Shown: positions 9,056 through 37,369, counted from the first letter of the stretch. The stretch: DNA of 43,949 bases from Clostridiales bacterium UBA1779 (GCA_002314565.1 DCGL01000010.1:1-43949), one strand, 5' to 3'. Notes: generated by a model not told the origin, from the sequence alone. Numbers and translations are program-made.

Positions 9056-9163
9056 CGGATACAGCATACTTTGTTCCGGAACCCCGGCGTAAGTCAGGGC
9101 TGCTTTGGAACGGATACCTGCGTCAGCTGTGCTGGCGCTTCACAAATTTACTGTAATATAAAA

Positions 9164-10756
9164 ATGAAAAGAGTATTTGTTATCGTACTTGACAGCTTCG
9201 GTGTCGGGGAAGCACCGGACGCTTACAAATGGGGCGATGAGGGCTCAAATACCCTGGGGGCTATCAGAAATCATCCGAATTTCGACTGTCCCAACTTAAA
9301 GCGCCTCGGTTTGTTCAATATTGACGGCGTTGGCGGGGGTGTTGAATATCCTCTTGCAAGCTATTGCCGCCTTGAAGAAATTTCCAGCGGCAAGGACACG
9401 ACCACCGGTCACTGGGAAATAGCCGGACTTGTGTCGGAACAGCCGTTCCCGACGTATCCTGACGGCTTTCCCGCGGACGTCCTTGACGAATTTACCCGTC
9501 TTACCGGTCGCGGTGTTCTGTGCAATCTGCCGTATTCGGGTACGGAGGTCATAAAAGACTATGGACGTGAGCACGTTGAAACGGGGAAGCTGATAGTATA
9601 TACCTCAGCGGACAGCGTTTTTCAGATTGCGGCTCACGAAGACGTGGTTCCGGTCGACGAGCTTTACCGCTATTGCGAGCTGGCGCGCAAGATGCTTCAG
9701 GGGAAGCACGGCGTCGGCCGCGTGATTGCCCGTCCGTTTACAGGGGAATGGCCGTATACGCGCACTCCGCGCCGCCACGACTTTTCTCTGGTACCGCCGA
9801 AAACTACTATGCTGGACAGCCTGTCTGCTTCCGGCTACGACGTTGTGACCGTCGGAAAAATCTACGATATTTTTGCCGGAAAGGGAATATCCCCTGATGA
9901 ATGCCGACGTACGCAGAACAACGCGGAAGGTATGAAGCTGACCTCAGAGCTCGCAGACCGTGACTTCAACGGTCTGTGCTTCGTAAACCTCGTTGATTTC
10001 GATATGACCTACGGTCACCGAAACGACGTTCCCGGCTACGCCCGTGCGGCTGCCGAGTTTGATCGCTGGCTCGGAACGTTTCTTCCGAAGCTCGGGAAAG
10101 AAGACTGCTTGCTTATCACGGCCGATCACGGCTGCGACCCGGCAACCCCTTCAACCGATCATTCCAGAGAATATATTCCTATGTTGTTATACGGACCTTC
10201 CGTGAAGTCCGGGGTCAACCTCGGAACCAGACGCGGATTCTCGGACATTTCGGCAACGGTGCTTGACCTGCTCGGCTGTGACAGGCTTGACACGGCGGGA
10301 AACAGCTTTGCTTCATCAGTAATTGAGAAAAAGCTTGACCCACGCGTTCAGGATAAGCTTATGGATGCTGCTGTTGAAGCCCGAAGAAAAGCATATTGCC
10401 CGTATTCCGGTTTTTCCGTCGGGGCGGCGCTTATGACTGCTTCGGGAAAAATTTATACAGGCTGCAATATCGAAAACGCCGCCTTCGGTCCCGGAAACTG
10501 CGCAGAACGCACTGCAATATTCAAAGCTGTGAGCGAGGGGCACAGAAGCTTCCGCGCAATTGCAATCTGCGGCGGCAAAGCAGGCTTTGAAGCCGAAGAA
10601 ATTTGCGCCCCCTGCGGCGTGTGCCGTCAGGTTATGGCAGAATTCTGCGGTCCTGATTTTACCGTAATTCTCGGTAATTCCGAAAAATCAAAGCAATACC
10701 GTTTTGACGAAATACTGCCTCTGGCCTTTGGACCTGAAAATCTCGGTAAAAAATAA
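9164..10756 (+). CDS. deoB: Phosphopentomutase fused in frame to cytidine deaminase
   Basis: MKRVFVIVLDSFGVGEAPDA and ITADHGCDP are DeoB-like. From about nt 10330 the same frame encodes a full Cdd domain (YCPYSGFSVGAAL, CNIENAAF, CAERTAIFKA, PCGVCRQVMAEF) with no intervening stop. Confidence 0.85.
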   Translation: MKRVFVIVLDSFGVGEAPDAYKWGDEGSNTLGAIRNHPNFDCPNLKRLGLFNIDGVGGGVEYPLASYCRLEEISSGKDTTTGHWEIAGLVSEQPFPTYPDGFPADVLDEFTRLTGRGVLCNLPYSGTEVIKDYGREHVETGKLIVYTSADSVFQIAAHEDVVPVDELYRYCELARKMLQGKHGVGRVIARPFTGEWPYTRTPRRHDFSLVPPKTTMLDSLSASGYDVVTVGKIYDIFAGKGISPDECRRTQNNAEGMKLTSELADRDFNGLCFVNLVDFDMTYGHRNDVPGYARAAAEFDRWLGTFLPKLGKEDCLLITADHGCDPATPSTDHSREYIPMLLYGPSVKSGVNLGTRRGFSDISATVLDLLGCDRLDTAGNSFASSVIEKKLDPRVQDKLMDAAVEARRKAYCPYSGFSVGAALMTASGKIYTGCNIENAAFGPGNCAERTAIFKAVSEGHRSFRAIAICGGKAGFEAEEICAPCGVCRQVMAEFCGPDFTVILGNSEKSKQYRFDEILPLAFGPENLGKK

Positions 10757-12099: not shown

Positions 12100-12366
12100 G
12101 CGTCAGTCTGACTCCAAATTTCGGTCAAAAGCCGGTTTTTGAGTCAATTTCTTCATTATTATTATATATAAGAATGCAGAACGGGAAAATAAGCGTGAAA
12201 CTGCAGGCCGGGCGGCGCACGGAAGCGCAAAACACAATATGATGTGTGAGAACGGCAGGCGGAGACACAAAATATAGTAAACGAGCTGTCCGAGGGAAGC
12301 GGATGGAACAATTTACATATTTTTAAGATATCTTTTTGCTTTTTATATAAAAAAAATAGAAAAATG

Positions 12367-12395
12367 TTGACAAAAGGATTGGCTTGTGATAAAAT
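12367..12395 (+). promoter_or_regulatory. Sigma-70-type promoter of the cohesin/dockerin cluster
   Basis: TTGACA, 17-nt spacer, TGaTAAAAT (extended -10), preceded by a T-run/A-run UP-like element at 12340-12366. Confidence 0.6.
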
Positions 12396-12454
12396 ATGAT
12401 AAACTTATGGTGCCATAAAGGCATCAAATACATTTTTCACTAAGGAGACGAAAG

Positions 12455-15400
12455 ATGAAAAGAACTCTCTCTAAGGTACTTTCATGCATTCTTGCTGTCA
12501 TGATGGTCCTGAGCGTCGTTTCAGTCGGTGCTTTCGCAGCCACAGGCTGTGGTGAAGGCAAGCACGTCAGCGACGGCAAGGTCTATGGCACAGATTCAGG
12601 AAAGTACTGCTATGACTACAGCTTTGTCACTTATAAGTGCGTAGTATGTAATCAGTATTATGCTGTTTACACCCGTGCTCTCAATGCTGCATGTCATTCC
12701 GCTTCCGATGACACGGTCATCAAACACGCAAAAGTAAACGCTACTTGCAAGGCTCTCGGAACTGAAGAGTACTACGAGTGCACAGTCTGCGGATGGAAGT
12801 CCACAGACGGAACAGCCGCCGGCATGTTCACTGATATGAAGACAGTTGAAATTGCCAAGGTTACTGCTCACAATTACGTTGCCGATCTCAAATCCATTGT
12901 TGCTCCTAAGATTAGCGGCACAACATACACCAAGGGTTCAATGAACTATGTCTGCTCTATCTGCGGTGACTCAAAGAAGATTACAATCACCTGCAATCAT
13001 GAGAATGACTATGATTCTACCAATAAGGAATACAAGTACAGCACAACTTATTGGACAAAGCTCACAAATTCTGATACTGTTACAAACTATGTTAAAGGAA
13101 GCTGCACAGCCAACGGATATCAGAAGTGGCAGTGCAAAGAGTGCGGACTTGTCATCACTCAGACTCTGACCAAGGCTCACGAACAGGATGACACAACATA
13201 CAAGAAGGTTAATGCAACTTGCACAACCGAAGGTTACGAATCTTATGTATGCTCAGTATGTAAAGTTACAGTTACAACAACACTCGCAAAGCTTAATCAT
13301 AAGGATGGATCAAAATCCAAACTTACAGAAACCAAAGCAACCTGCACTAAAAACTCACAGTGGTATTGCTCAATTTGTAAAACCACATATGATAATAAGG
13401 TCCTTAACGGCGTTGACAATATGCTCAATCATCCCGGCAAGGTTGCTCTTACAGATTCCAACGTGAAATCAGCAGCCTGCGGCAAGGATATCAAGTATTA
13501 TGCTGCATACTATTGCGCAACCTGCGCCAAGAATAAACAGAACGTTACTGTTGCCGGTGCTGTAATCCCTGAGTATAAAGTAGACGATAAGGTTCAGACC
13601 TATGGTTTCGTATGGCTTGAGGAAGCAACCGGTACAACTCACAACTTCACATACAAGGTATGGGAAGGAACAGTCGGTTCAACAACACTCAAGAAGACAA
13701 CCTGCGTTGCTGACGGTTACTACGTACTTCAGTGCACAAAGTGCGAAAAGTATGCTGATGCCAACGGAAACGCTGCCGCTTTAGCCTCTGCAAAGGTTTA
13801 CACCGAAGCTAAGTCTGATGATTATCACAACAAGTTTGAAGTCAGCATCATTATTGCTGCAAACTGCTCCAACCCCGGTGAAAGACAGATTGCCTGCACA
13901 TACTGCAGCAAGCTCGACGGTACTCGTGAAGTTATTCCCGCTACCGGTCATAAGGGCAACGGAACAGTAAGAACCATCAGAGAAGCTACCTGCCTCGAAA
14001 CAGGTGCTGAGGTTCAGTCCTGCTCAGTATGTAAGCAGGAATTCATCGTATCCCTCAAGGCTCTCAGCCACGATTATTCCCTGACTTATAAGAAGGCTTC
14101 CGCAACCTGCACAACAGTTGGTTACTCAGCCGATACAAAGTACTGCTCACGTTGCGGTACACTTCAGACTCCCGGCAACCTGATTGCCGCCAAGGATCAT
14201 ACTTATGTATATGTTGATCATGTACAGGGTAAGGACGAATCTGCCGCCAAGACCTGCACAACAAAGGGATTCACAGTAAATTCCGGTGCTGCTTCCGGCA
14301 AGGGCTGGTACTGCAATGTTAAGAATTGCGGTGCTACCGACGGAACAATAGTTACAGCTTGTGTAAACAGCCTGGGACACGACTCAGCAAAAGCTTATGA
14401 AAACGTATCAGGCAAAACCGCTTGCGGAACTGTAAACTATGTAACATATATCTGCTCAAGATGCGGATTTAACGGTGGTTCCAATAAGATTGTTAAGTTC
14501 AAGCAGAACGCTGCTCACACTCTCGTAGCTGTTGCCGCCACAACAGGCAGCTCTTCCTACTACGTAGAGGATCTCGACAGAACAGTAGTAATTGGTTCCG
14601 GTGCTCAGGCTAAGGTTGATGCTTCTTGCGCAACCATCGGCTTCACCATCGTAAAGTGCTCAACTTGCGGCAACTACTACTCATCCAACAAGGTCGCCAA
14701 GCTTGCTCACGTAAACAAGGCCGGCCAGTCATTCAACGAAGTTGTTGATTCAACTGCTATCCTTTGCGTTGAAGGCGTTACAGATTATGTCTGCGTAAAT
14801 GCCTGCTGCAAGGAAAACAAGACTCAGAAGAACTATGCCGAGTTCGTAAAGCATGGTGCAGAAGCTGTTAAGACTGCTCAGTATGCTCCTACTTGCACAA
14901 CTCCCGGTTATGAAGTTCTCGCTTATGAGTGCTGCCATACATACTTCACCAATAAGATTGCCGAGCAGATTTCTCACTCAATGGTTGATAATGTCGTCGC
15001 CGGCGTCGTAGTTTCCAAGTCCTGCTCCGCTTGCGGCTACACTGTAGTCCTTAAGGCTGCTGAACTTGAGTATGTATACGAAATCAAGGCCAATGCCGTT
15101 AATAACGGTAAGCTTGCCGTAACAGTATCCGTTAAGGCTACAAGCTCCGCTATCAGCGTCTGGTCCGTTTCCGATAAGTTCAACGTACCTGCCGGCTTCA
15201 CCTTTGATAAGGTTGTTGCTGCCAATGGTATCTTCGATGTTGTATCCGCTGTTTACGGTCAGGATACTCACGTAGAAAAGACCAAGGTCGGTGAGATGAA
15301 CAACGTTGTCTACTACGAAGACAAGACCATCGTAGATGACAGATACGTAACATTCGTAGCTCGTAACTCCAAGCTCGCTAATGTAACAGTTAACGGAACT

Positions 15401-15799
15401 GTAGAACTTGCTACAATTTACTTCAACATTGCCGATGATGCTGTTGCATACGGCACTTCCTCAACAGAGTTTGACTTTGTTGTAAAGCCTGCTTACAAGA
15501 CATCCAAGGCTGTTTCCGCCGCCACTGCTGCCGGTAAGGAAATCTCCATCACCGCTGATGATTACTCCGGCGTTGCATTCAAGGTAACTGTATACAACCT
15601 CGGTGATATCAACCATGACGGTTATGTAAATATCCTTGACTTCGCTAAGGTTCTCGCTGCATTCGATGCATTCGCCGATGCTGCCGATATGCCCGAAGCT
15701 GACATCAACTGCGATGGCGTTATCGACGCTGCCGACGTTGCTCTCATTGAAAAGTTCGTAACAGGTGCCATCACCTACGAACAGATGATTGCCGGTTAA
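12455..15799 (+). CDS. Secreted Cys-repeat protein with a cohesin-like domain and a C-terminal dockerin
   Basis: Signal peptide ends at VGAFA|AT. About 16-17 modules of C-x(7-11)-C-x2-C ... H cover aa 30-855. A cohesin-like beta domain covers aa about 858-1040. A two-segment dockerin follows (GDINHDGYVNILDF ... ADINCDGVIDAADV). SD AAGGAG upstream. Confidence 0.8.
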   Translation: MKRTLSKVLSCILAVMMVLSVVSVGAFAATGCGEGKHVSDGKVYGTDSGKYCYDYSFVTYKCVVCNQYYAVYTRALNAACHSASDDTVIKHAKVNATCKALGTEEYYECTVCGWKSTDGTAAGMFTDMKTVEIAKVTAHNYVADLKSIVAPKISGTTYTKGSMNYVCSICGDSKKITITCNHENDYDSTNKEYKYSTTYWTKLTNSDTVTNYVKGSCTANGYQKWQCKECGLVITQTLTKAHEQDDTTYKKVNATCTTEGYESYVCSVCKVTVTTTLAKLNHKDGSKSKLTETKATCTKNSQWYCSICKTTYDNKVLNGVDNMLNHPGKVALTDSNVKSAACGKDIKYYAAYYCATCAKNKQNVTVAGAVIPEYKVDDKVQTYGFVWLEEATGTTHNFTYKVWEGTVGSTTLKKTTCVADGYYVLQCTKCEKYADANGNAAALASAKVYTEAKSDDYHNKFEVSIIIAANCSNPGERQIACTYCSKLDGTREVIPATGHKGNGTVRTIREATCLETGAEVQSCSVCKQEFIVSLKALSHDYSLTYKKASATCTTVGYSADTKYCSRCGTLQTPGNLIAAKDHTYVYVDHVQGKDESAAKTCTTKGFTVNSGAASGKGWYCNVKNCGATDGTIVTACVNSLGHDSAKAYENVSGKTACGTVNYVTYICSRCGFNGGSNKIVKFKQNAAHTLVAVAATTGSSSYYVEDLDRTVVIGSGAQAKVDASCATIGFTIVKCSTCGNYYSSNKVAKLAHVNKAGQSFNEVVDSTAILCVEGVTDYVCVNACCKENKTQKNYAEFVKHGAEAVKTAQYAPTCTTPGYEVLAYECCHTYFTNKIAEQISHSMVDNVVAGVVVSKSCSACGYTVVLKAAELEYVYEIKANAVNNGKLAVTVSVKATSSAISVWSVSDKFNVPAGFTFDKVVAANGIFDVVSAVYGQDTHVEKTKVGEMNNVVYYEDKTIVDDRYVTFVARNSKLANVTVNGTVELATIYFNIADDAVAYGTSSTEFDFVVKPAYKTSKAVSAATAAGKEISITADDYSGVAFKVTVYNLGDINHDGYVNILDFAKVLAAFDAFADAADMPEADINCDGVIDAADVALIEKFVTGAITYEQMIAG

Positions 15800-15835
15800 T
15801 CCGCAATCTGCGTTTAGAATTACGAGGTAACTGTA

Positions 15836-16594
15836 ATGCGTACAACTAAAATTGTTTCGCTCATCATGGTTGCTGTACTGATTTGCTTCGCTTCTGTCCC
15901 TGCATTCGCAGAGGATGTACTGTTTACAACAACAGCTGCTCCTTACGATGTACTGACAGCTAACGCAGCAACAATATCCCTCGTTCTCGCAGAAGAGGCT
16001 TCGGCCTCTTCCGCGAAGGCGGGCGAAACTGTTGAAATCAGCGTAGCAGCCGAGCAGGGTATCCCCGGTCTTTATGCTATGGAATTTACTGTTGGCTTTG
16101 ATGCTGCAAAGTTCGCTTTCGTTGCCTGCAACGCCTGCGATGCTCTTAATGCTGACGGCGTAAAAGTAAATTACAAAGCTACTGCAAACAGCGTTATCGT
16201 CAGAGTAAACGCTTACGAAACCGTAAATCAGGGTCTTTACACTGCTGACAAGACAGAACTTGTCAAAATCACTCTCACTGCTCTCAAGGATATGGATAAG
16301 TTTGACGGTGTTGTTACACTGAAGGGCGGAAACCAGGCCTCTAAGAACGGTGATGTCGAAGTAATAGCCAAGAGCATTATCTCTGTTGTTTACGGTGACG
16401 TAAATGCTGACGGTAATGTGGGTGATATCTTCGACCTTCTCACACTTAAAAAATATTTGTCTGATTCCACTGTAGCCATCAATGTTGCAAATGCTGACGT
16501 TACCGCCGATGGATCAGTTGATGTTACGGATCTTGTCAGACTTAAAAAGTTCGTTGCCGGTGTAACCGGAACCGTACTTGGTCCCAAAGCATAA
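15836..16594 (+). CDS. Secreted cohesin-dockerin adaptor protein
   Basis: Signal peptide ends at VPAFA|ED. Cohesin-like domain includes GETVEISVAAEQGIPGLYAMEFTVGFDAAKFAFV. Dockerin is YGDVNADGNVGDIFDL ... ADVTADGSVDVTDLVRLKKFV. Confidence 0.8.
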   Translation: MRTTKIVSLIMVAVLICFASVPAFAEDVLFTTTAAPYDVLTANAATISLVLAEEASASSAKAGETVEISVAAEQGIPGLYAMEFTVGFDAAKFAFVACNACDALNADGVKVNYKATANSVIVRVNAYETVNQGLYTADKTELVKITLTALKDMDKFDGVVTLKGGNQASKNGDVEVIAKSIISVVYGDVNADGNVGDIFDLLTLKKYLSDSTVAINVANADVTADGSVDVTDLVRLKKFVAGVTGTVLGPKA

Positions 16595-16614
16595 TTCAAA
16601 GAGGTAACTGAGTA

Positions 16615-17577
16615 ATGAAGAAGATTTTTGCTATTATCCTCTCTGTAATGATGGTTGCTTCACTTGCAATTATTGCTTCTGCTGAAACACCTCTTACAGC
16701 CACAGCACCTGCAACAACAGTTGCTTCTGCTGATTTCACTACAATCACTGCTACCCCCGACAAGACAAGCGTCTCTGCCAAGGGTGACAAGATTGTTGTT
16801 AACTACGTTGTTTCCAACAATGCCGGTATCATGGTTCTTACCATGGGCCGCATTTCCACAGTTGTTCCTACAGGTCTTACTCTCGTTGACGAGAAGGACG
16901 GCGGTCTGTTTGGCGCTCCTACTACCGGTGCAAATAATGTTCTTTACCTTATGGATGCCGATAGCAAGGCCAACGGAATTCTTTACACTGCTACGTTTGA
17001 AGTAGCTGTCGATGTCAAGGAAGGCGATACATTCACTTTCTCAGTACCGACAATTGTTGCTGCAAACTACAATGAGCAGGCTGTTCAGGTAAACTGTGTT
17101 AACGCTACAGTATCAAAGGCTGCTTGCACTCATGCCAACACGGAAGTTCGCGGCAAGGTCAATGCCAGCTGCACACAGTCCGGTTATACCGGTGATACTT
17201 ATTGCAAGGATTGCGGCAAGAAGATAGCTGAAGGTACAGTTATCGGTCAGTTCCTCCACACCGGCGGAACTGCCACCTGCACCAAGAAGGCTGTCTGCAC
17301 TCTTTGCAAGCAGGAGTATGGTAATGTAAATGCTGATAACCATCCCGGAACAAAGGTCGTCAACGTCAAGGCTGCAACCTCCACAACTGAAGGTTACACC
17401 GGTGACACAGTCTGCACAGACTGCGGAAAGACACTTAAGAAGGGCGAAGCTATCGCTAAGATTATCAATCCCCCCACAAACGATAATTCCATCGTAACCA
17501 TTGCTGTCATTGCCGTTCTCGGTATTGCTGCAATCGCCGGTGCTGCTGTCGTTTACAATAAGAGAAGAGAGTTCTGA
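16615..17577 (+). CDS. Membrane-anchored cohesin protein with Cys-repeat modules
   Basis: Signal peptide, a cohesin-like domain, three modules of the same C...CxxC...H type (SCTQSGYTGDTYCKDCG...H), and a C-terminal TM helix plus KRREF stop-transfer. No LPXTG motif and no dockerin. Confidence 0.75.
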   Translation: MKKIFAIILSVMMVASLAIIASAETPLTATAPATTVASADFTTITATPDKTSVSAKGDKIVVNYVVSNNAGIMVLTMGRISTVVPTGLTLVDEKDGGLFGAPTTGANNVLYLMDADSKANGILYTATFEVAVDVKEGDTFTFSVPTIVAANYNEQAVQVNCVNATVSKAACTHANTEVRGKVNASCTQSGYTGDTYCKDCGKKIAEGTVIGQFLHTGGTATCTKKAVCTLCKQEYGNVNADNHPGTKVVNVKAATSTTEGYTGDTVCTDCGKTLKKGEAIAKIINPPTNDNSIVTIAVIAVLGIAAIAGAAVVYNKRREF

Positions 17578-17651
17578 TAGATCCATGTCAGGAAACTGAC
17601 AGTGGGCAGTGGCTCAGCCACTGCCCACACTCTCTTCAAAAAATCAAACCT

Positions 17652-17678
17652 GCTCACTTGAGAAGTGAGCCTTTTTTT
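17652..17678 (+). terminator. Intrinsic terminator after the cohesin cluster
   Basis: GCTCACTT gag AAGTGAGC followed by CTTTTTTT. It is preceded by a 12-bp hairpin at 17602-17628. Confidence 0.8.
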
Positions 17679-17680
17679 AT

Positions 17681-17719
17681 GTCCTGAGAACGTTTATGTC
17701 TCAGGGCTTTCTTTTTTTA
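17681..17719 (+). terminator. Second intrinsic terminator
   Basis: CCTGAGA ... TCTCAGG stem followed by a TTTCTTTTTTT run. Confidence 0.65.
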
Positions 17720-17739
17720 TAAAAAAACAAAGAAAAATG

Positions 17740-17768
17740 TTGCAATTATCTATGTAATGTATTATAAT
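17740..17768 (+). promoter_or_regulatory. dcw-cluster (mraZ) promoter
   Basis: TTGCAA, 17-nt spacer, TATAAT, with an upstream A/T-tract UP-like element. Confidence 0.6.
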
Positions 17769-31708: not shown

Positions 31709-33601
31709 ATGGTTACGAATGAGACACTTAATCTGTCGGGACTCAATTCAAAGTTCGAATATCCCATTCTCGAAGTCTGTGAGATGCTCGGCATCTGCAC
31801 CGGTGACGACGGAGCTGCCCTGATTCTCAGAAAAGGCAAAAAATTCGAAGTCAGACGCGAAGAGGACGGCTTCCATATCACTTACCGTAAGACCTGCGAA
31901 ATCTTCAGAGGCCTGACGCTGCTCGGCCGTGTTCCCATGGGCTATGCAATTTCACAGGAAGGCAATCCCGAACTGCTCTGCTATATGGTCGACGCATCGA
32001 GAAATGCCGTTTTAAGCTACGAGGGGGTCCGCCGTATGGTAAGAGTTCTTGCCACTCTCGGTTACGATTCAATGATGCTTTATACCGAAGATACCTACGA
32101 GGTTCCCGGTTACCCTTATTTCGGTCATATGAGAGGCCGTTTTACAGAGAAGGAGCTCAAAGAGCTTGACGACTACGCCTTCTCTTTCGGAATTGAAATC
32201 ATCCCCTGCATCCAGACTCTTGCCCATCTGTCCACCGCCATCCGCTGGCCGGGACTGCGCGGTTTCTCGGATACCGGAGATATCCTTCTTGCCGGTGACG
32301 AAAGAACCTACGATTTTATCAAGGCAATACTTGAAACCTGCAAGAGATGCTTCCGTTCACGAAGAGTAAATCTAGGTATGGACGAAGCGCACAATCTGGG
32401 ACTTGGCAGCTACCTCAAGCGCAACGGCTACCGCAAGGCATCCGATATTATGCTTGAGCACCTGTCACGCGTGGCAAAAATCTGCGAAGATCTCGGACTT
32501 GCCCCGATGATGTGGTCCGATATGTTCTTCAGAATGGCCTTCAAGGGCACATACCGCGTACGCGAAGGCGAAATCGCCCCCGAAATTATGGAAAAGGTTC
32601 CGAAGAACGTAGCTCTGGTTTACTGGGATTACTATTCTCTCGACCGTCAGATTTTCGATCATATGGTCGAGTGTCATCAGAAATTCGACAACGAGGTTCT
32701 CTTTGCCGGCGGTGCCTGGAAATGGTCCTGCATTGCTCCACACAACCGCTTCTCGCTTGCTTCAACGAAGCTTCAGCTGGACTCCTGCGCCGAGCACGGA
32801 CTTACGAAGATTATCGTAACAGGCTGGGGTGACAACGGAGGCGAAGCTTCTCAGTTCTCAACTCTTCCCGTTCTTCTTTACTTTGCGGAAAGACTGTACG
32901 GCGGTCCCGAAGTTGCCGACGTTGACGAAGACGCTCTGCGCGAGCGTTCACTTGAAGTGTTCAATGCAAAGTGGGATGACCTGCTTCTCTTCGACCTTCC
33001 AAACGATTTCCCGGGAACCTCACCGAAAGAAACCTCTCATCCCATGAATCCCTGCAAGTACCTTCTGTACAACGATCCGCTTGAGGGACTTTTCGACAAG
33101 CAGATGATTCCGGAAGTTGACGAATACTATGCAAAATATGCAAAGATTCTGCTTTCTCACAAGGACGATTACCGCTGGGGCTATATTTACAATTCCCTCG
33201 GAACTCTCTGTGACCTGCTTTCAATCAAGGCCGACCTCGGCGTCAGAATTACAAAGGCGTACCTTGACGGAGACAAGGATGCCCTGCGTGAGCTTGCACA
33301 TACTGCAATTCCCGCCTGCGTCGATAAGCTTGACGTGTTCACAAAGGCTTTCAGACAGCAGTGGTTTGAAGAGAACAAGACCTTCGGCTTCTCAAACGAG
33401 GATATAAGACTCGGCGGACTCAGAGCAAGACTGCTTGCAGCCCGCGACAGAATAGACGAATATCTTGACGGAAAAGCTGCAGCCATCGAAGAGCTTGAAC
33501 AGCCGAGACTCTGGGTTGACGGAAGAGCAGCTGACAGCACCGCAACGCCGTTCATCGTCTTCAATAACTGGAGCCAGACCGCAACCGTCGGACAGATGTA
33601 A
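31709..33601 (+). CDS. Glycoside hydrolase family 20 beta-N-acetylhexosaminidase-like protein (intracellular)
   Basis: TIM-barrel motifs IIPCIQTLAHL and the catalytic pair in NLGMDEAHNLG. No signal peptide. Confidence 0.7.
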   Translation: MVTNETLNLSGLNSKFEYPILEVCEMLGICTGDDGAALILRKGKKFEVRREEDGFHITYRKTCEIFRGLTLLGRVPMGYAISQEGNPELLCYMVDASRNAVLSYEGVRRMVRVLATLGYDSMMLYTEDTYEVPGYPYFGHMRGRFTEKELKELDDYAFSFGIEIIPCIQTLAHLSTAIRWPGLRGFSDTGDILLAGDERTYDFIKAILETCKRCFRSRRVNLGMDEAHNLGLGSYLKRNGYRKASDIMLEHLSRVAKICEDLGLAPMMWSDMFFRMAFKGTYRVREGEIAPEIMEKVPKNVALVYWDYYSLDRQIFDHMVECHQKFDNEVLFAGGAWKWSCIAPHNRFSLASTKLQLDSCAEHGLTKIIVTGWGDNGGEASQFSTLPVLLYFAERLYGGPEVADVDEDALRERSLEVFNAKWDDLLLFDLPNDFPGTSPKETSHPMNPCKYLLYNDPLEGLFDKQMIPEVDEYYAKYAKILLSHKDDYRWGYIYNSLGTLCDLLSIKADLGVRITKAYLDGDKDALRELAHTAIPACVDKLDVFTKAFRQQWFEENKTFGFSNEDIRLGGLRARLLAARDRIDEYLDGKAAAIEELEQPRLWVDGRAADSTATPFIVFNNWSQTATVGQM

Positions 33602-33622
33602 TTATTTTTCCCTAATACAAGT

Positions 33623-33648
33623 AAAAAACGGCCTTCGGGCCGTTTTTT
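33623..33648. terminator. Bidirectional intrinsic terminator
   Basis: AAAAAACGGCC TTCG GGCCGTTTTTT. Confidence 0.9.
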
Positions 33649-33739
33649 ACTTGCCATTATTCTTTATTAATGATATAATAAATGTATATTTTTATTGATT
33701 AAACAGGGACGGTTCCCTGAAATCCGGAGGTTAACTTAA

Positions 33740-36700
33740 ATGGTCTTCTGTGAGAAATATAAAGGAATAATTCCGCGCATCGTTCATTCACCGGCAGAAT
33801 GGGCCCTTGTCGGCAGAGAAATGAAGATAAGCGCCGCCTGCCGCGCGTCAGACGGAAAGGTTCCGGACAGTCTGTGGGTATACGTGAGACGGGGTGAGAA
33901 GTATGAACTGAAGCCCTGTGATTCACTGACTGCCTGCGGACAGAAATATGAGATATATTCGGGTTATATTCCGAAAGAAGAGGTTTCGGGAGCTTCCGTT
34001 TCATACGCCGTAGGTGAAGAGGGATTTTTCTCTGAACTTACAGATATGTACCGCGTTGAACTGATTGACGGTGATACTCTGCCGTCACAGCCTCCGCTTA
34101 TTCTTACCGAGATTTATGGAAGACCTAAGGGAAGAGGAATCGGCACATATCTTGAGGTTATGAACCCATCCGAAAAAACGGTTGACCTCTACGACTATGA
34201 ATTCCTGGTAATTGAGAGCAAAAACGTTGCCGACGGAAAGCCCTTCGTCCGTCTTCCCATGTGCGATGCTCCCGGAACGGAATATATGAAGCCGGGTGAA
34301 TTTGCGGCAATCTGGGGGATTACCGCTGCAAACCTTGATAAGAAGGGAAGATTCTGGTCAAGCCCTGAAGATTTCTTTGAGGATTTTGACTCGGATTTCA
34401 ACAACAGATTTGCAGGATACACTACAGCTGACGGGCATGTCGTCCCAGTTCATCTTTATTCCGTCAATCCGGAAACCGGCGAAAAGAAGCCGCTTGCCGG
34501 CGTCGGTGAAATTCCCGTAAAAAATACGGAAACTTACCTGTTTATCGTTCCGAGAGGAAAGAACAAAGAGGAAGCTGTCTATACTGCTCATTACAACACG
34601 GTGTATGCCAGCTGTGATACTCCTGTCAAACAGTCTTCATACTGGAAAACGGACGTACGCTGCCCTGATAAGGGAATAACAATTTGTCATTACGCCCCCG
34701 GAACCCCCGGATTTGCCGGAAGGGGACAGGCATATCCCGATGCAGCAGCGGATCTTCCGCTGATTATTCCTATGAAGCCCGATACCGGACTTTATATTTC
34801 AGACAAAGCTGCCGATTTCGTGTTTGCAGCTGTTCCCTCTGATCCTGCAAGACGCGTAACCGATGCTCAGGTTCATATATGCATTTCGGATGAAGAAAAA
34901 ATACTTGAAGCATACGAAAGGGAAGACGGACTCTGGCACGCAAAGCTTGATTCCGATTTTATCGCACGTCACTCAAAGCTTTCATATTATCTGACCGCAT
35001 CCGACGGAACGAGAAGCGTATCGACTGCCGGTGAAAAGATTGAAATCAATATATTCGACAATGAGGGACCTGCAATTACGGATTGCATTCCAAGCGAAGG
35101 ATATGCATATGACGGAAGAGAAAAATGCGAAATAAGCGCGCGGTTTTATGATATTTCAGGTGTCGATCTTTCGGAATGCAGTTTGAACGTTGACGGAAAA
35201 GACTGTACGTCAGGGGCCCAATGGAGTCCAGCAGGCGTTAAATATGTTACCGAATTTTCAACGGGCAGCCATAATATGCATCTTGAGCTCTGTGACTGTC
35301 TCGGAAACCGCAGCGAAAAGAAAATCAACTTCACCGTTTCCGATCTCTCTGAAATGAATTGCTATATCGGGGAAGTGCACTGCCATACCTCCGATTCCGA
35401 CGGCACCGGTTTCCCGCCGGATGCTTACGAATATGCAAGAGACGTGGGCAAGGTCGATTTCTTTGCAACAACCGAGCATTCTCATTATATAGATACCGAG
35501 AAATACCGCAAAGCGCTTGAAACCGCCGAAAGATTTGACGAGCCCGGCAAATTTGCAGCTCTTTACGGCTGGGAAATGACCTGGAACAATTCCTGCGGTT
35601 ACTGGGGGCACATCAACGTACTCAATACGCGTGAATTTATCAGCGATATCAATTCCGTCAGTGAGCCGGAACTCTGGAAATGGATGAAGGAACGTCCGGG
35701 ATGCGTGGGAATGTTCAATCATCCCGGTTACAGCTGGGGCAATTTCGACGAGTTTTCGCACAGAGACGACGAAAGCGACGGTCTTATGCAGCTGGCCGAA
35801 ATCAAGGGACCCGTATACGATTTTGAATATATGAATATGCTGGCAGAGGGCTGGCACTGTTCCCCCGTGACAAACGAAGACAATCACGCTCCGAACTGGA
35901 CGACGGCGACAAATATGTACGGAATGATTCTGGCACCTGCCCTGACACGTCAGAACGTTGTCGATGCATTTGTCAATCACAGAACTTATACGACCTCGGA
36001 CAGAACGATGAAAATTCTGTATAAGGTCAACGGCGAGTGGCTCGGCTCTCATCTTGACAATCCGGACAAGCTTCGTTTTGATATTTCAATCACCACGGAA
36101 GCTTTGTCGGGCATCGGACTTGTCGAGATTGTGACGGAAGACAATATCGTTGCTGCTTCGAAAGATTTCAGCGGTATAAGAACGGCAAACTGGAAACCCG
36201 TACTGAATGCCGATTTCGATTATTACTACGTTAGAATCACCGGAATGGGCAATTACTGTGTGACGGCTCCCGTATGGCTTGAAAACCGCGGAGAAGCCGT
36301 AATTACCGGGATTCAGTATGCCGCTTCGTATAATGAAACCGACTCTGCAGCTGTTACCGCAGTCATTGAAAACAAAACCGCGGAAACTCTCGATGACGTA
36401 AGAGTGTCGTTTATACTATCTGCCCAGAACGGATTCAGGCTTGCCGATGCCGAGCCCTTCAGACGGATATGCTGCGGAAAGATGAAAGCGGGGTCAAGCC
36501 TCAAGGTCTCGGCTCTGCTTCCCGAAATCCCGTATCTGCGGCGCGCGACGGTAATAGTCAGCGCAAAGAACGACGGAAAGAGACGTTCGTCAACGGCATA
36601 TGCAATGCTGAATCCGGTCCAGATTACCGCAACTATGCCCGAAAGCGCTGTGTTTGAGCGTGACGGCAAAGAATTTGAAAATCCCTTTGCGTATATTACA

Positions 36701-37369
36701 CTTTATAACCGTTCACCGAAGCCGGTGTCGCTCAGCGGGGCAAGGCTCTGTTTGTGGACCAAGACCGGTAAACAGCCGTCTGAAGACAGAAAAATGACCT
36801 TCGGCAAGTTCGTTCTGCAGCCGAGAAGCACGGTGGTTGTCTGGGACAAAAGTCAGAATCCGGAACTCACGGTTAACGATTTCAACGAAAGATACGGAAC
36901 ATCTCTCGTTGAGGGCGTAACGATTATTCCCACGTCAGTTCATATTATCGGGGAGTCGAAAGACGGACGCAGACTTGATCTGAGGTTTGGGGACGTTCTT
37001 CGTGAAGAGATCATCAGCCGCGTTCACTGGAACTATGCCCTTGAATTTGACGGGGCACATCACGAAGAGGTTGAGCACCGCTACGTATACGTTCCGAACA
37101 GAACGTCGACCTCGACGCCTTCAGGTTTCCGCCGTCCGCAGCCCGGTGCCGTTGATGAAGAACAGGCAGGAATTCAGAGAACCGTTCTTCCGGGAAGAAA
37201 AGACAAGAAGAGAGCACAAGAGGCAGATAAGAAAGACGCACGTGCAGAGAAGAGAAAAGAAAACGCCGTTCTTTCAAAGAAAGAAGGCGCAATTGCCGCT
37301 GCGGGTGCCGCTGCCGTCGGTGCCGGTCTTGCAGCAACACTTGCAGTGCTGTTCAGAAAGAAAAAATAA
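33740..37369 (+). CDS. Large LTD-PHP-LTD metallophosphoesterase-like protein with a C-terminal membrane anchor
   Basis: Lamin-tail-like segments (LILTEIYGRPKG..YLEVMNPSEKTVDLYDY and AYITLYNRSPKPVSLSGARL) and a PHP motif EVHCHTSDSDGTG...ATTEHSH. The C-terminus has a K/E-rich stretch followed by a TM (AAAGAAAVGAGLAATLAVLF RKKK). SD GGAGG upstream. Confidence 0.65.
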   Translation: MVFCEKYKGIIPRIVHSPAEWALVGREMKISAACRASDGKVPDSLWVYVRRGEKYELKPCDSLTACGQKYEIYSGYIPKEEVSGASVSYAVGEEGFFSELTDMYRVELIDGDTLPSQPPLILTEIYGRPKGRGIGTYLEVMNPSEKTVDLYDYEFLVIESKNVADGKPFVRLPMCDAPGTEYMKPGEFAAIWGITAANLDKKGRFWSSPEDFFEDFDSDFNNRFAGYTTADGHVVPVHLYSVNPETGEKKPLAGVGEIPVKNTETYLFIVPRGKNKEEAVYTAHYNTVYASCDTPVKQSSYWKTDVRCPDKGITICHYAPGTPGFAGRGQAYPDAAADLPLIIPMKPDTGLYISDKAADFVFAAVPSDPARRVTDAQVHICISDEEKILEAYEREDGLWHAKLDSDFIARHSKLSYYLTASDGTRSVSTAGEKIEINIFDNEGPAITDCIPSEGYAYDGREKCEISARFYDISGVDLSECSLNVDGKDCTSGAQWSPAGVKYVTEFSTGSHNMHLELCDCLGNRSEKKINFTVSDLSEMNCYIGEVHCHTSDSDGTGFPPDAYEYARDVGKVDFFATTEHSHYIDTEKYRKALETAERFDEPGKFAALYGWEMTWNNSCGYWGHINVLNTREFISDINSVSEPELWKWMKERPGCVGMFNHPGYSWGNFDEFSHRDDESDGLMQLAEIKGPVYDFEYMNMLAEGWHCSPVTNEDNHAPNWTTATNMYGMILAPALTRQNVVDAFVNHRTYTTSDRTMKILYKVNGEWLGSHLDNPDKLRFDISITTEALSGIGLVEIVTEDNIVAASKDFSGIRTANWKPVLNADFDYYYVRITGMGNYCVTAPVWLENRGEAVITGIQYAASYNETDSAAVTAVIENKTAETLDDVRVSFILSAQNGFRLADAEPFRRICCGKMKAGSSLKVSALLPEIPYLRRATVIVSAKNDGKRRSSTAYAMLNPVQITATMPESAVFERDGKEFENPFAYITLYNRSPKPVSLSGARLCLWTKTGKQPSEDRKMTFGKFVLQPRSTVVVWDKSQNPELTVNDFNERYGTSLVEGVTIIPTSVHIIGESKDGRRLDLRFGDVLREEIISRVHWNYALEFDGAHHEEVEHRYVYVPNRTSTSTPSGFRRPQPGAVDEEQAGIQRTVLPGRKDKKRAQEADKKDARAEKRKENAVLSKKEGAIAAAGAAAVGAGLAATLAVLFRKKK

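Follow-up and report, generated by a model that had tools for sequence, protein, structure and literature searches.

A three-gene cohesin–dockerin operon predicted to display a cysteine-repeat protein on the cell surface of an elephant-gut Clostridia

Three consecutive plus-strand genes, designated A, B and C, lie between housekeeping genes in a 43,949-nucleotide stretch of DNA from Clostridiales bacterium UBA1779 (GCA_002314565.1 DCGL01000010.1:1-43949; hereafter the window). Gene A (12455–15799), gene B (15836–16594) and gene C (16615–17577) are open reading frames (ORFs) for proteins of 1114, 252 and 320 aa, separated by gaps of 36 nt (A–B) and 20 nt (B–C). The sequence AAGGAG at 12442–12447 was read as the ribosome binding site of gene A, and gene C is preceded by the Shine–Dalgarno sequence AGAGGT. 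Public gene calls place the start of gene B either at 15836 (252 aa) or ten codons later at 15866 (242 aa). As a GAGGT Shine–Dalgarno sequence lies 7 nt before the ATG at 15836, we favour the longer protein. A first-pass annotation of this DNA had read the unit as a cohesin/dockerin surface scaffold that is bound to the cell through its third protein, and this core reading was borne out by the domains of the proteins, the anchor-like C-terminus of C and a transcription unit of its own. We consider it probable, with some reserve, that the trio is a self-contained operon for cohesin–dockerin display of a non-enzymatic Cys-repeat protein on the cell surface.

The promoter region of the trio (12335–12395) consists of an A/T-rich UP-like tract (12335–12366), a TTGACA −35 hexamer (12367–12372), a 17-nt spacer containing TG, and a TAAAAT −10 hexamer (12390–12395). 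The site from 12367 to 12395 is sigma-70-like and matches 11 of 12 consensus positions in addition to the extended −10 TG; it was the top site of the region in a consensus scan and agrees with the near-consensus extended −10 promoter that had been proposed. A hairpin scan identified a stem–loop with a 7-bp stem (12408–12426) within the ~50-nt 5' untranslated region, which is possibly an mRNA-stabilising 5' element. Downstream of gene C, a terminator cluster extends from 17586 to 17718. The three hairpins of the triple terminator proposed for 17602–17719 were all present, namely a 12-bp hairpin at 17602–17628 that lacks a U tract, a hairpin at 17652–17670 followed by U7, and a U-tract hairpin at 17681–17707 followed by UUUCUUUUUUU; a further small hairpin lies at 17586–17601. 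The site at 17652 was also picked up by a terminator scan, and RNA spanning 17578–17730 folded with an energy of −59.2 kcal/mol (z = −7.64 relative to shuffled sequence). The terminator scan of the region revealed no internal terminator-like site within the trio, and mraZ, the next gene, has its own promoter at 17740–17768. From the strong promoter, the short intergenic gaps, the absence of an internal terminator, the terminator cluster and the separate mraZ promoter we conclude that the trio is an insulated operon.

Each of the three proteins begins with a signal peptide composed of a K/R start, a hydrophobic core and an AxA motif, as had been claimed; these were assigned by reading the sequence. 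The signal peptides comprise residues 1–28 of A (basic, with a hydrophobic core and AFA/A), 1–25 of B (AFA/E) and 1–23 of C (ASA/E).

Protein B gave the clearest domain assignments. Its cohesin (residues 57–166; 16004–16333) matched Pfam PF00963 with 35.6 bits (cutoff 24.1), and its dockerin (residues 186–240; 16391–16555) matched PF00404 with 48.3 bits (cutoff 22.9, E = 1.1e-12). The type-I-like dockerin at the end of protein A (residues 1049–1101; 15599–15757) matched the same family with 31.3 bits (E = 2.4e-7), and both dockerins also matched dockerins in the PDB. Four dockerin Ca-loop segments, at 15605, 15701, 16397 and 16496, account for these two domains, and no others were found across the whole window. 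The two-segment dockerins proposed for the ends of A and B are therefore both above the Pfam cutoff, and each has the pair of Ca-binding F-hand segments (D-x-N/D-x-D-G ... D, about 22–35 residues apart) expected of a type I dockerin. With a signal peptide, one cohesin and one dockerin in a small protein, B is predicted to be a ScaC-type adaptor. A homologue search with B returned only B itself and one dockerin match, P0130, from a different sample and an SLH-type context.

Protein C did not match the Pfam cohesin family PF00963. An AlphaFold2 (AF2) model of C built from 24 sequences had a mean confidence (pLDDT, predicted local distance difference test) of 80.8, and when its N-terminal beta domain (residues ~43–168; 16741–17118) was compared with the PDB using Foldseek, 29 of the 29 best matches were cohesins, with template modelling (TM) scores of 0.5–0.67 normalised to the target. 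The best match was 2xdh, a non-cellulosomal cohesin from Archaeoglobus fulgidus, and the matches included Clostridium thermocellum OlpA and Ruminococcus flavefaciens ScaE. Four full-length homologues of C (P0003, P0009, P0015 and P0097; ~30% identity, ~88% coverage) all contain PF00963. Because the fold matches of the model are joined by Pfam-positive homologues, we conclude that C bears a divergent cohesin at the level of the predicted fold.

Three Cys-repeat units (residues 171–283; 17125–17463) separate the cohesin of C from a C-terminus that reads INPPTN, DN, 23 hydrophobic residues and NKRREF. The NPPTN motif (residues 285–289; 17467–17481) aligns with the xPxTG signals of the homologues, and the hydrophobic segment that precedes the NKRREF tail comprises residues 292–314 (17488–17556). 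In the homologues the NPPTN column is occupied by VPKTG, VPQTS, NPNTG or APGTG. A hydrophobic stretch and then a K/R tail come after the motif in each case, and immediately downstream of two of the homologues (P0015 and P0097) is a sortase gene. Motifs of the form NP(Q/K)T(N/G) are of the class-B sortase type. The Pfam Gram_pos_anchor family matched C weakly (E = 0.27). The first-pass annotation had described this end as a transmembrane helix plus KRREF without LPXTG. Although a literal LPXTG is indeed absent, that description understated the three-part sorting-signal layout, which is present with a variant motif. We place the chance that C is anchored by a sortase through the variant NPPTN signal at slightly better than even. 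Whether held by a sorting signal or by a membrane anchor, C is predicted to be the cell-bound component.

Most of protein A consists of His/Cys repeats (residues ~30–865; 12542–15049), which form ~17 degenerate C-x~10-CxxC units. Residues 30–865 contain 55 cysteines, and CxxC motifs recur every 31–73 residues, a spacing too tight to accommodate a hidden catalytic domain or carbohydrate-binding module (CBM). The N-terminus of A (12455–12553, residues 1–33) contains, besides the signal-peptidase I site at AFA/A, an AATG-C32 sequence compatible with a permissive lipobox. Instead of being released, A could carry a lipid, which would then sit on the first Cys of the repeat array.

Between the repeats and the dockerin of A lies an orphan beta domain of ~180 residues (~866–1046; 15050–15592). 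No homologues of residues 860–1114 were found in 5.8 billion sequences by a word-indexed search, and none of residues 862–1046 in 1.84 billion representatives by exhaustive phmmer. The domain did not match the fetched proteins and locus ORFs in a local phmmer search, nor PDB sequences and Pfam at E ≤ 10, and hhalign against a six-sequence cohesin profile returned a probability of 0.1. A single-sequence AF2 model of the C-terminus of A contained about 10 strands with a pLDDT of 48, and cohesins made up six of its top eight fold matches (TM ≤ 0.5), other beta-sandwiches being among the matches. Since the pLDDT of the model is just 48, we take these matches as a hint only. In a MAFFT alignment the NGTVELATIYFNI and AANGIFDV...YG stretches of A fell on conserved cohesin motifs, with 26% identity to the cohesin of C. 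Thus, of the cohesin-like domains claimed for all three proteins, that of B was supported by Pfam and that of C by fold and homologues, whereas that of A received no support from Pfam, PDB sequences or hhalign. On balance we consider a cohesin somewhat the more likely identity of the A domain, which is unproven.

If the beta domain were instead a carbohydrate-binding or X-type module, A could be read as a CttA-like adhesin for substrate or host, docked on C or B, and the trio would contain only two cohesins. The lack of sequence support for a cohesin fits this possibility, as do the CBM2, macroglobulin receptor-binding and Ig-like adhesin domains that also appear among the fold matches of the weak model; CBM–dockerin and X–dockerin arrangements are, moreover, common in cellulosomal proteins. 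The predominance of cohesins among the top fold matches and the alignment with cohesin motifs argue against it. So does domain order, as passenger–cohesin–dockerin is the architecture of a protein encoded at a related locus (L003, see below) and of Ruminococcus bromii Amy4 (PMC4611034). We regard a carbohydrate-binding or X-type module as possible but doubtful.

The repeats of A and C share the consensus C.H.NTE.R.AK.ATC...GYTGDTYC.DCG....G..I....H. A profile constructed from 253 repeat instances identified at least 13, mostly divergent, units in A. In the model of C the repeat units are small all-beta knuckles with pLDDT values of 93–97. Pfam zinc-ribbon families (DZR, Zn_Ribbon_TF and others) remained below the gathering cutoff in A, in C and in two canonical repeat proteins (P0002 and P0004), the repeat profile had no significant relative among PDB sequences, and neither Pfam nor NCBIfam contains a family for the repeat. 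The C/C/C/H set of the consensus nevertheless suggests that the units may bind zinc. A Kazal-like reading was considered and rejected; ovomucoid shares the C-x10-C-x2-C spacing, but the match had an E value of 0.26, the number of cysteines is not the same, and in the confident model the fold is all-beta without a helix.

Protein C matched over 190 secreted proteins, in most cases through the repeat alone. They came mainly from metagenome contigs, and the few named organisms were Clostridia or Lachnospiraceae. In these proteins the repeat is combined with LRR_5, dockerin, cohesin, Endonuclease_1, Big_2 and FN3 domains, usually together with a C-terminal anchor. The position of the repeat between functional domains and anchors in many secreted proteins of Clostridia suggests that it serves as a generic extracellular stalk or spacer module. 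In P0002 (364 aa) the order seen in A is reversed, with an N-terminal dockerin immediately after the signal peptide and then six canonical Cys repeats, indicating that repeat and dockerin shuffle freely. A literature search turned up no published zinc-ribbon repeat combined with a dockerin.

The arrangement of a dockerin gene followed by a cohesin-bearing anchor gene is found elsewhere. In every homologue locus with upstream context (L002, L003/L004 and L068), the gene preceding the anchor ends in a dockerin. At L002 a dockerin protein is followed by anchor P0015 and a sortase, at L068 a gene ending in a dockerin is followed by anchor P0097 and a sortase, and at L003/L004 a Big_2/Flg_new–cohesin–dockerin protein is followed by anchor P0009. 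B aligned with the cohesin–dockerin end of the L003 protein with 31% identity over 214 aa (E = 2e-15). As this protein precedes anchor P0009, a homologue of C, we conclude that another organism has a pair of adjacent genes homologous to B and C. By analogy with cttA–scaE, the presence of a dockerin gene beside the anchor gene suggests that the two products are cognate partners. An unannotated ORF between the Big_2/Flg_new–cohesin–dockerin gene and the P0009 gene (6371–6556 in L003, 2826–3011 in L004) encodes a complete extra two-segment dockerin, perhaps a remnant, or a second dockerin put out of frame. The exact trio was not found in any other genome. In the co-conservation check that the first-pass annotation had put forward, the trio as a unit was thus not recovered, but the cassette of dockerin gene and cohesin anchor recurs.

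The distribution of the region itself is narrow. Identical copies were confined to three contigs, one from JGI (sample 3300001598), one from Logan and one from NCBI, and no relatives of the housekeeping proteins of the window at ≥90% identity were present among 15 billion sequences. Sample 3300001598 is cited in papers on the metagenome of Asian-elephant faeces (PMC4160196, PMC4897800). The nearest RsmH proteins were 53–56% identical and came from metagenome-assembled genomes labelled Acutalibacteraceae, Eubacterium or Clostridia. Acutalibacteraceae is presumably also the family in which GTDB places R. bromii. From these data the host appears to be a poorly sampled, uncultured Clostridia lineage of the elephant gut. 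None of 59 genomes selected by RsmH carried the trio upstream of mraZ; as the best RsmH identity among them was 53–56%, this absence says little about conservation.

The domain assignments suggest how the three proteins could work together. C would be secreted and stay attached to the cell at its C-terminus, most likely through the variant sortase signal (NPPTN, hydrophobic stretch and KRREF) and otherwise through a plain membrane anchor, and its three Cys repeats would form a short stalk that holds out the single cohesin. B, with one cohesin and one dockerin, would serve as the adaptor. A would be the main cargo, an ~835-residue rod of ~17 small, ribbon-like His/Cys units that probably bind zinc, followed by a beta-sandwich that may be a third cohesin and then by the dockerin. 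Ca-dependent binding of the dockerins of B and/or A to the cohesins of C and/or B would then hang A on the cell wall, perhaps as a non-enzymatic fibril or adhesin. As up to three cohesins face two dockerins, at least one cohesin would stay free; it could recruit dockerin proteins encoded elsewhere, or chain A molecules to one another. In this scheme we infer who binds whom, as well as the processing of C by a sortase, zinc binding by the repeats, the role of A as a fibril or adhesin and the level of expression. The complete anchor–adaptor–distal hierarchy put forward in the first-pass annotation is likewise a hypothesis.

Several observations weigh against this reading. The beta domain of A could not be demonstrated to be a cohesin. 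Apart from the match of B to the L003 protein, homology of A and B to other proteins is limited to their dockerins, and the exact trio is not conserved. The motif of C is non-canonical compared with LPXTG, no sortase gene was found among the scanned ORFs of the window, and most of the Cys-repeat proteins without a cohesin have a plain transmembrane segment plus RRRKKK at their end. The data cover 44 kb of the genome, and dockerin-bearing enzymes may be encoded elsewhere. The case for high expression consists of codon bias and promoter quality.

With Pfam and NCBIfam, neither a catalytic domain nor a CBM was detected in the trio, and the CxxC spacing of A points the same way, in accord with the claim that glycoside hydrolase (GH), CBM and protease modules are missing. 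The same claim had presented an enzyme-free unit as unusual, and in this respect it did not hold. The products of the structural sca cluster of R. flavefaciens, scaC-scaA-scaB-cttA-scaE, are likewise confined to scaffoldins and a non-catalytic dockerin protein, and the enzymes are encoded at other places in the genome (PMC4081043). This precedent lends weight to a different interpretation, in which the trio supplies the structural core for a conventional multi-enzyme complex (cellulosome, amylosome or mucinolysome). Its cohesins would then serve mainly to recruit glycoside hydrolases or peptidases that bear dockerins and are encoded elsewhere, and A would be a scaffoldin instead of cargo. The anchor Sca2 of R. 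bromii, a ScaE-like general anchor with a sortase signal, holds amylases, peptidases and leucine-rich repeat (LRR) proteins (PMC4611034), and other genomes scatter dockerin proteins with Cys repeats and LRRs among housekeeping genes. The labels of the nearest RsmH relatives are compatible with such a complex, and the free cohesin would provide a site for an enzyme. However, with at most three cohesins, one per protein, the capacity of the complex would be very small, and the trio contains no CBM. In the 44-kb window neither dockerin-bearing carbohydrate-active enzymes nor a substrate-binding CBM, the hallmarks of a cellulosome or amylosome, were found, and the GH20 protein and other secreted-looking proteins encoded there lack a dockerin. 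We therefore judge a multi-enzyme core to be rather unlikely, and prefer the display of A as cargo.

A more specific version of the display model would make A a self-assembling surface fibre. Here the terminal beta domain would act as a cohesin for A-type dockerins, and the zinc-ribbon rods would be chained head-to-tail from a base of B and C. We consider such a fibre unlikely. If it were true, A would form an abundant non-enzymatic cohesin–dockerin fibril coat in a Gram-positive gut anaerobe, built from a widespread and not yet described extracellular metal-binding repeat.

Codon use was compared by means of the codon adaptation index (CAI), with five ribosomal protein genes of the window as the reference and 28 non-ribosomal genes as the compared set. 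A (0.770) and C (0.749) were the top two of the 28 genes and approached the ribosomal protein genes (0.78–0.81), in line with the ribosomal-gene-like codon use that had been noted, while B was lower at 0.656. In gene A, codons ending in CG were almost entirely avoided (GCG 0/124, ACG 1/120, TCG 0/78 and CCG 0/11). As the bias runs in the same direction as that of the ribosomal genes of the same DNA, it probably reflects translational selection rather than foreign origin. Together with the promoter and its UP-like tract and with the hairpin in the leader, the codon bias makes strong expression of the operon probable.

A 35-nt direct repeat brackets the trio (12335–12369 and 17708–17742; 77% ungapped identity, higher with one gap). 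It consists of the A/T-rich UP-like tract and −35 hexamer found at both the trio promoter and the mraZ promoter, and could be a duplication from insertion of a cassette or merely two alike strong promoters. That the trio is a recently acquired island with odd codon use of foreign origin is very unlikely: A and B are sequence orphans, the closest genomes lack the trio upstream of mraZ and the repeat flanks the unit, but the codon preferences (AAG, ACA and avoidance of NCG) match the direction of the window's own ribosomal genes, the GC content of the trio (44–47%) is inside the range of the window, no integrase, transposase or tRNA landmark adjoins the trio, and its absence from such distant genomes says little.

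The surroundings of the operon are housekeeping genes, as had been stated, with nucleoside-salvage genes on one side and the mraZ/dcw cluster on the other. Upstream lie dnaJ, prmA, deoC and genes for a purine/uridine phosphorylase, a phosphopentomutase–cytidine deaminase fusion and a CofE-like ligase. The fusion is a single ORF (9071–10756) in the nucleoside-salvage run (deoC, purine nucleoside phosphorylase), combining a phosphopentomutase-like Metalloenzyme domain with a cytidine/deoxycytidylate deaminase domain. Downstream, mraZ–rsmH and the dcw cluster through ftsZ are followed later by a GH20 gene and then by the start of the S10 ribosomal operon. The region from 31709 to 37369 encodes the GH20 hexosaminidase-like protein and then a 1209-aa protein with Lamin-tail (LTD) and DUF3604 matches. 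As neither carries a dockerin, they are not obvious clients of the trio.

Among known systems, the closest parallels are found in ruminococci. In R. flavefaciens, ScaC serves as a cohesin–dockerin adaptor, and ScaE, a single cohesin anchored by sortase, binds CttA, a dockerin protein with no catalytic function (PMC4081043). The trio is a similarly enzyme-free structural cluster in which B has the architecture of ScaC and C, like ScaE, combines one cohesin with a C-terminal sorting-type signal; ScaE is also among the fold matches of C. As with cttA–scaE, a non-catalytic dockerin protein is encoded beside the anchor. Unlike the R. flavefaciens cluster, the trio has no multi-cohesin ScaA/ScaB scaffoldins, no recognised X–dockerin module and no CBMs. 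It also differs in having NPPTN in place of LPXTG, a Cys-repeat array as the passenger, and a sequence identity below what a Pfam cohesin match on C or A would need. CttA is defined by an X-dockerin dyad and carbohydrate-binding modules, and no CBM or X module was detected in A with Pfam or NCBIfam, so that A is analogous to CttA only as a non-catalytic dockerin protein beside an anchor.

The amylosome of R. bromii resembles the trio as a small system of single-cohesin proteins with a general-purpose, sortase-type anchoring cohesin. Its Amy4/Sca1 is a GH13–cohesin–dockerin protein whose cohesin binds its own dockerin (PMC4611034). Amy4 contains a GH13 amylase and starch CBMs, whereas A contains no enzyme and its cohesin is unproven; in addition, the trio forms one operon. 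Many ruminococcal cohesins escape Pfam and BLAST and are seen only by AlphaFold, in systems whose core scaffoldins resemble ScaB, ScaC and ScaE (bioRxiv 10.64898/2026.02.05.704116). C, and possibly A, resemble the AlphaFold-only cohesins of that preprint, although those belong to elaborate multi-scaffoldin systems of human Ruminococcus and the trio consists of three genes in a distant elephant-gut lineage. Cohesin and dockerin modules also occur outside cellulosomes, as in the A. fulgidus cohesin 2xdh and the cohesin-like modules of Clostridium perfringens, and the pair has uses other than cellulose degradation. In contrast to the anchor–adaptor–cargo operon proposed here, these examples are modules found in isolation or toxin and glycosidase complexes. 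As judged from its sequence, the trio appears to work like the known scaffoldin clusters, differing in its minimal size, its Cys-repeat rod as passenger or stalk, the NPPTN motif and extreme sequence divergence.

The trio adds a minimal, apparently enzyme-free cohesin–dockerin display cassette from a barely sampled Clostridia lineage of the elephant gut. It is also a further case in which Pfam misses divergent cohesins, that of C having been seen only through structure and the putative one of A having had no Pfam match. The Cys repeat is the more useful lead. It is widespread, belongs to no family and has no solved structure, and defining it would improve the annotation of surface proteins in gut bacteria. 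The trio offers a compact system for asking whether these repeats are rigid stalks or binding modules.

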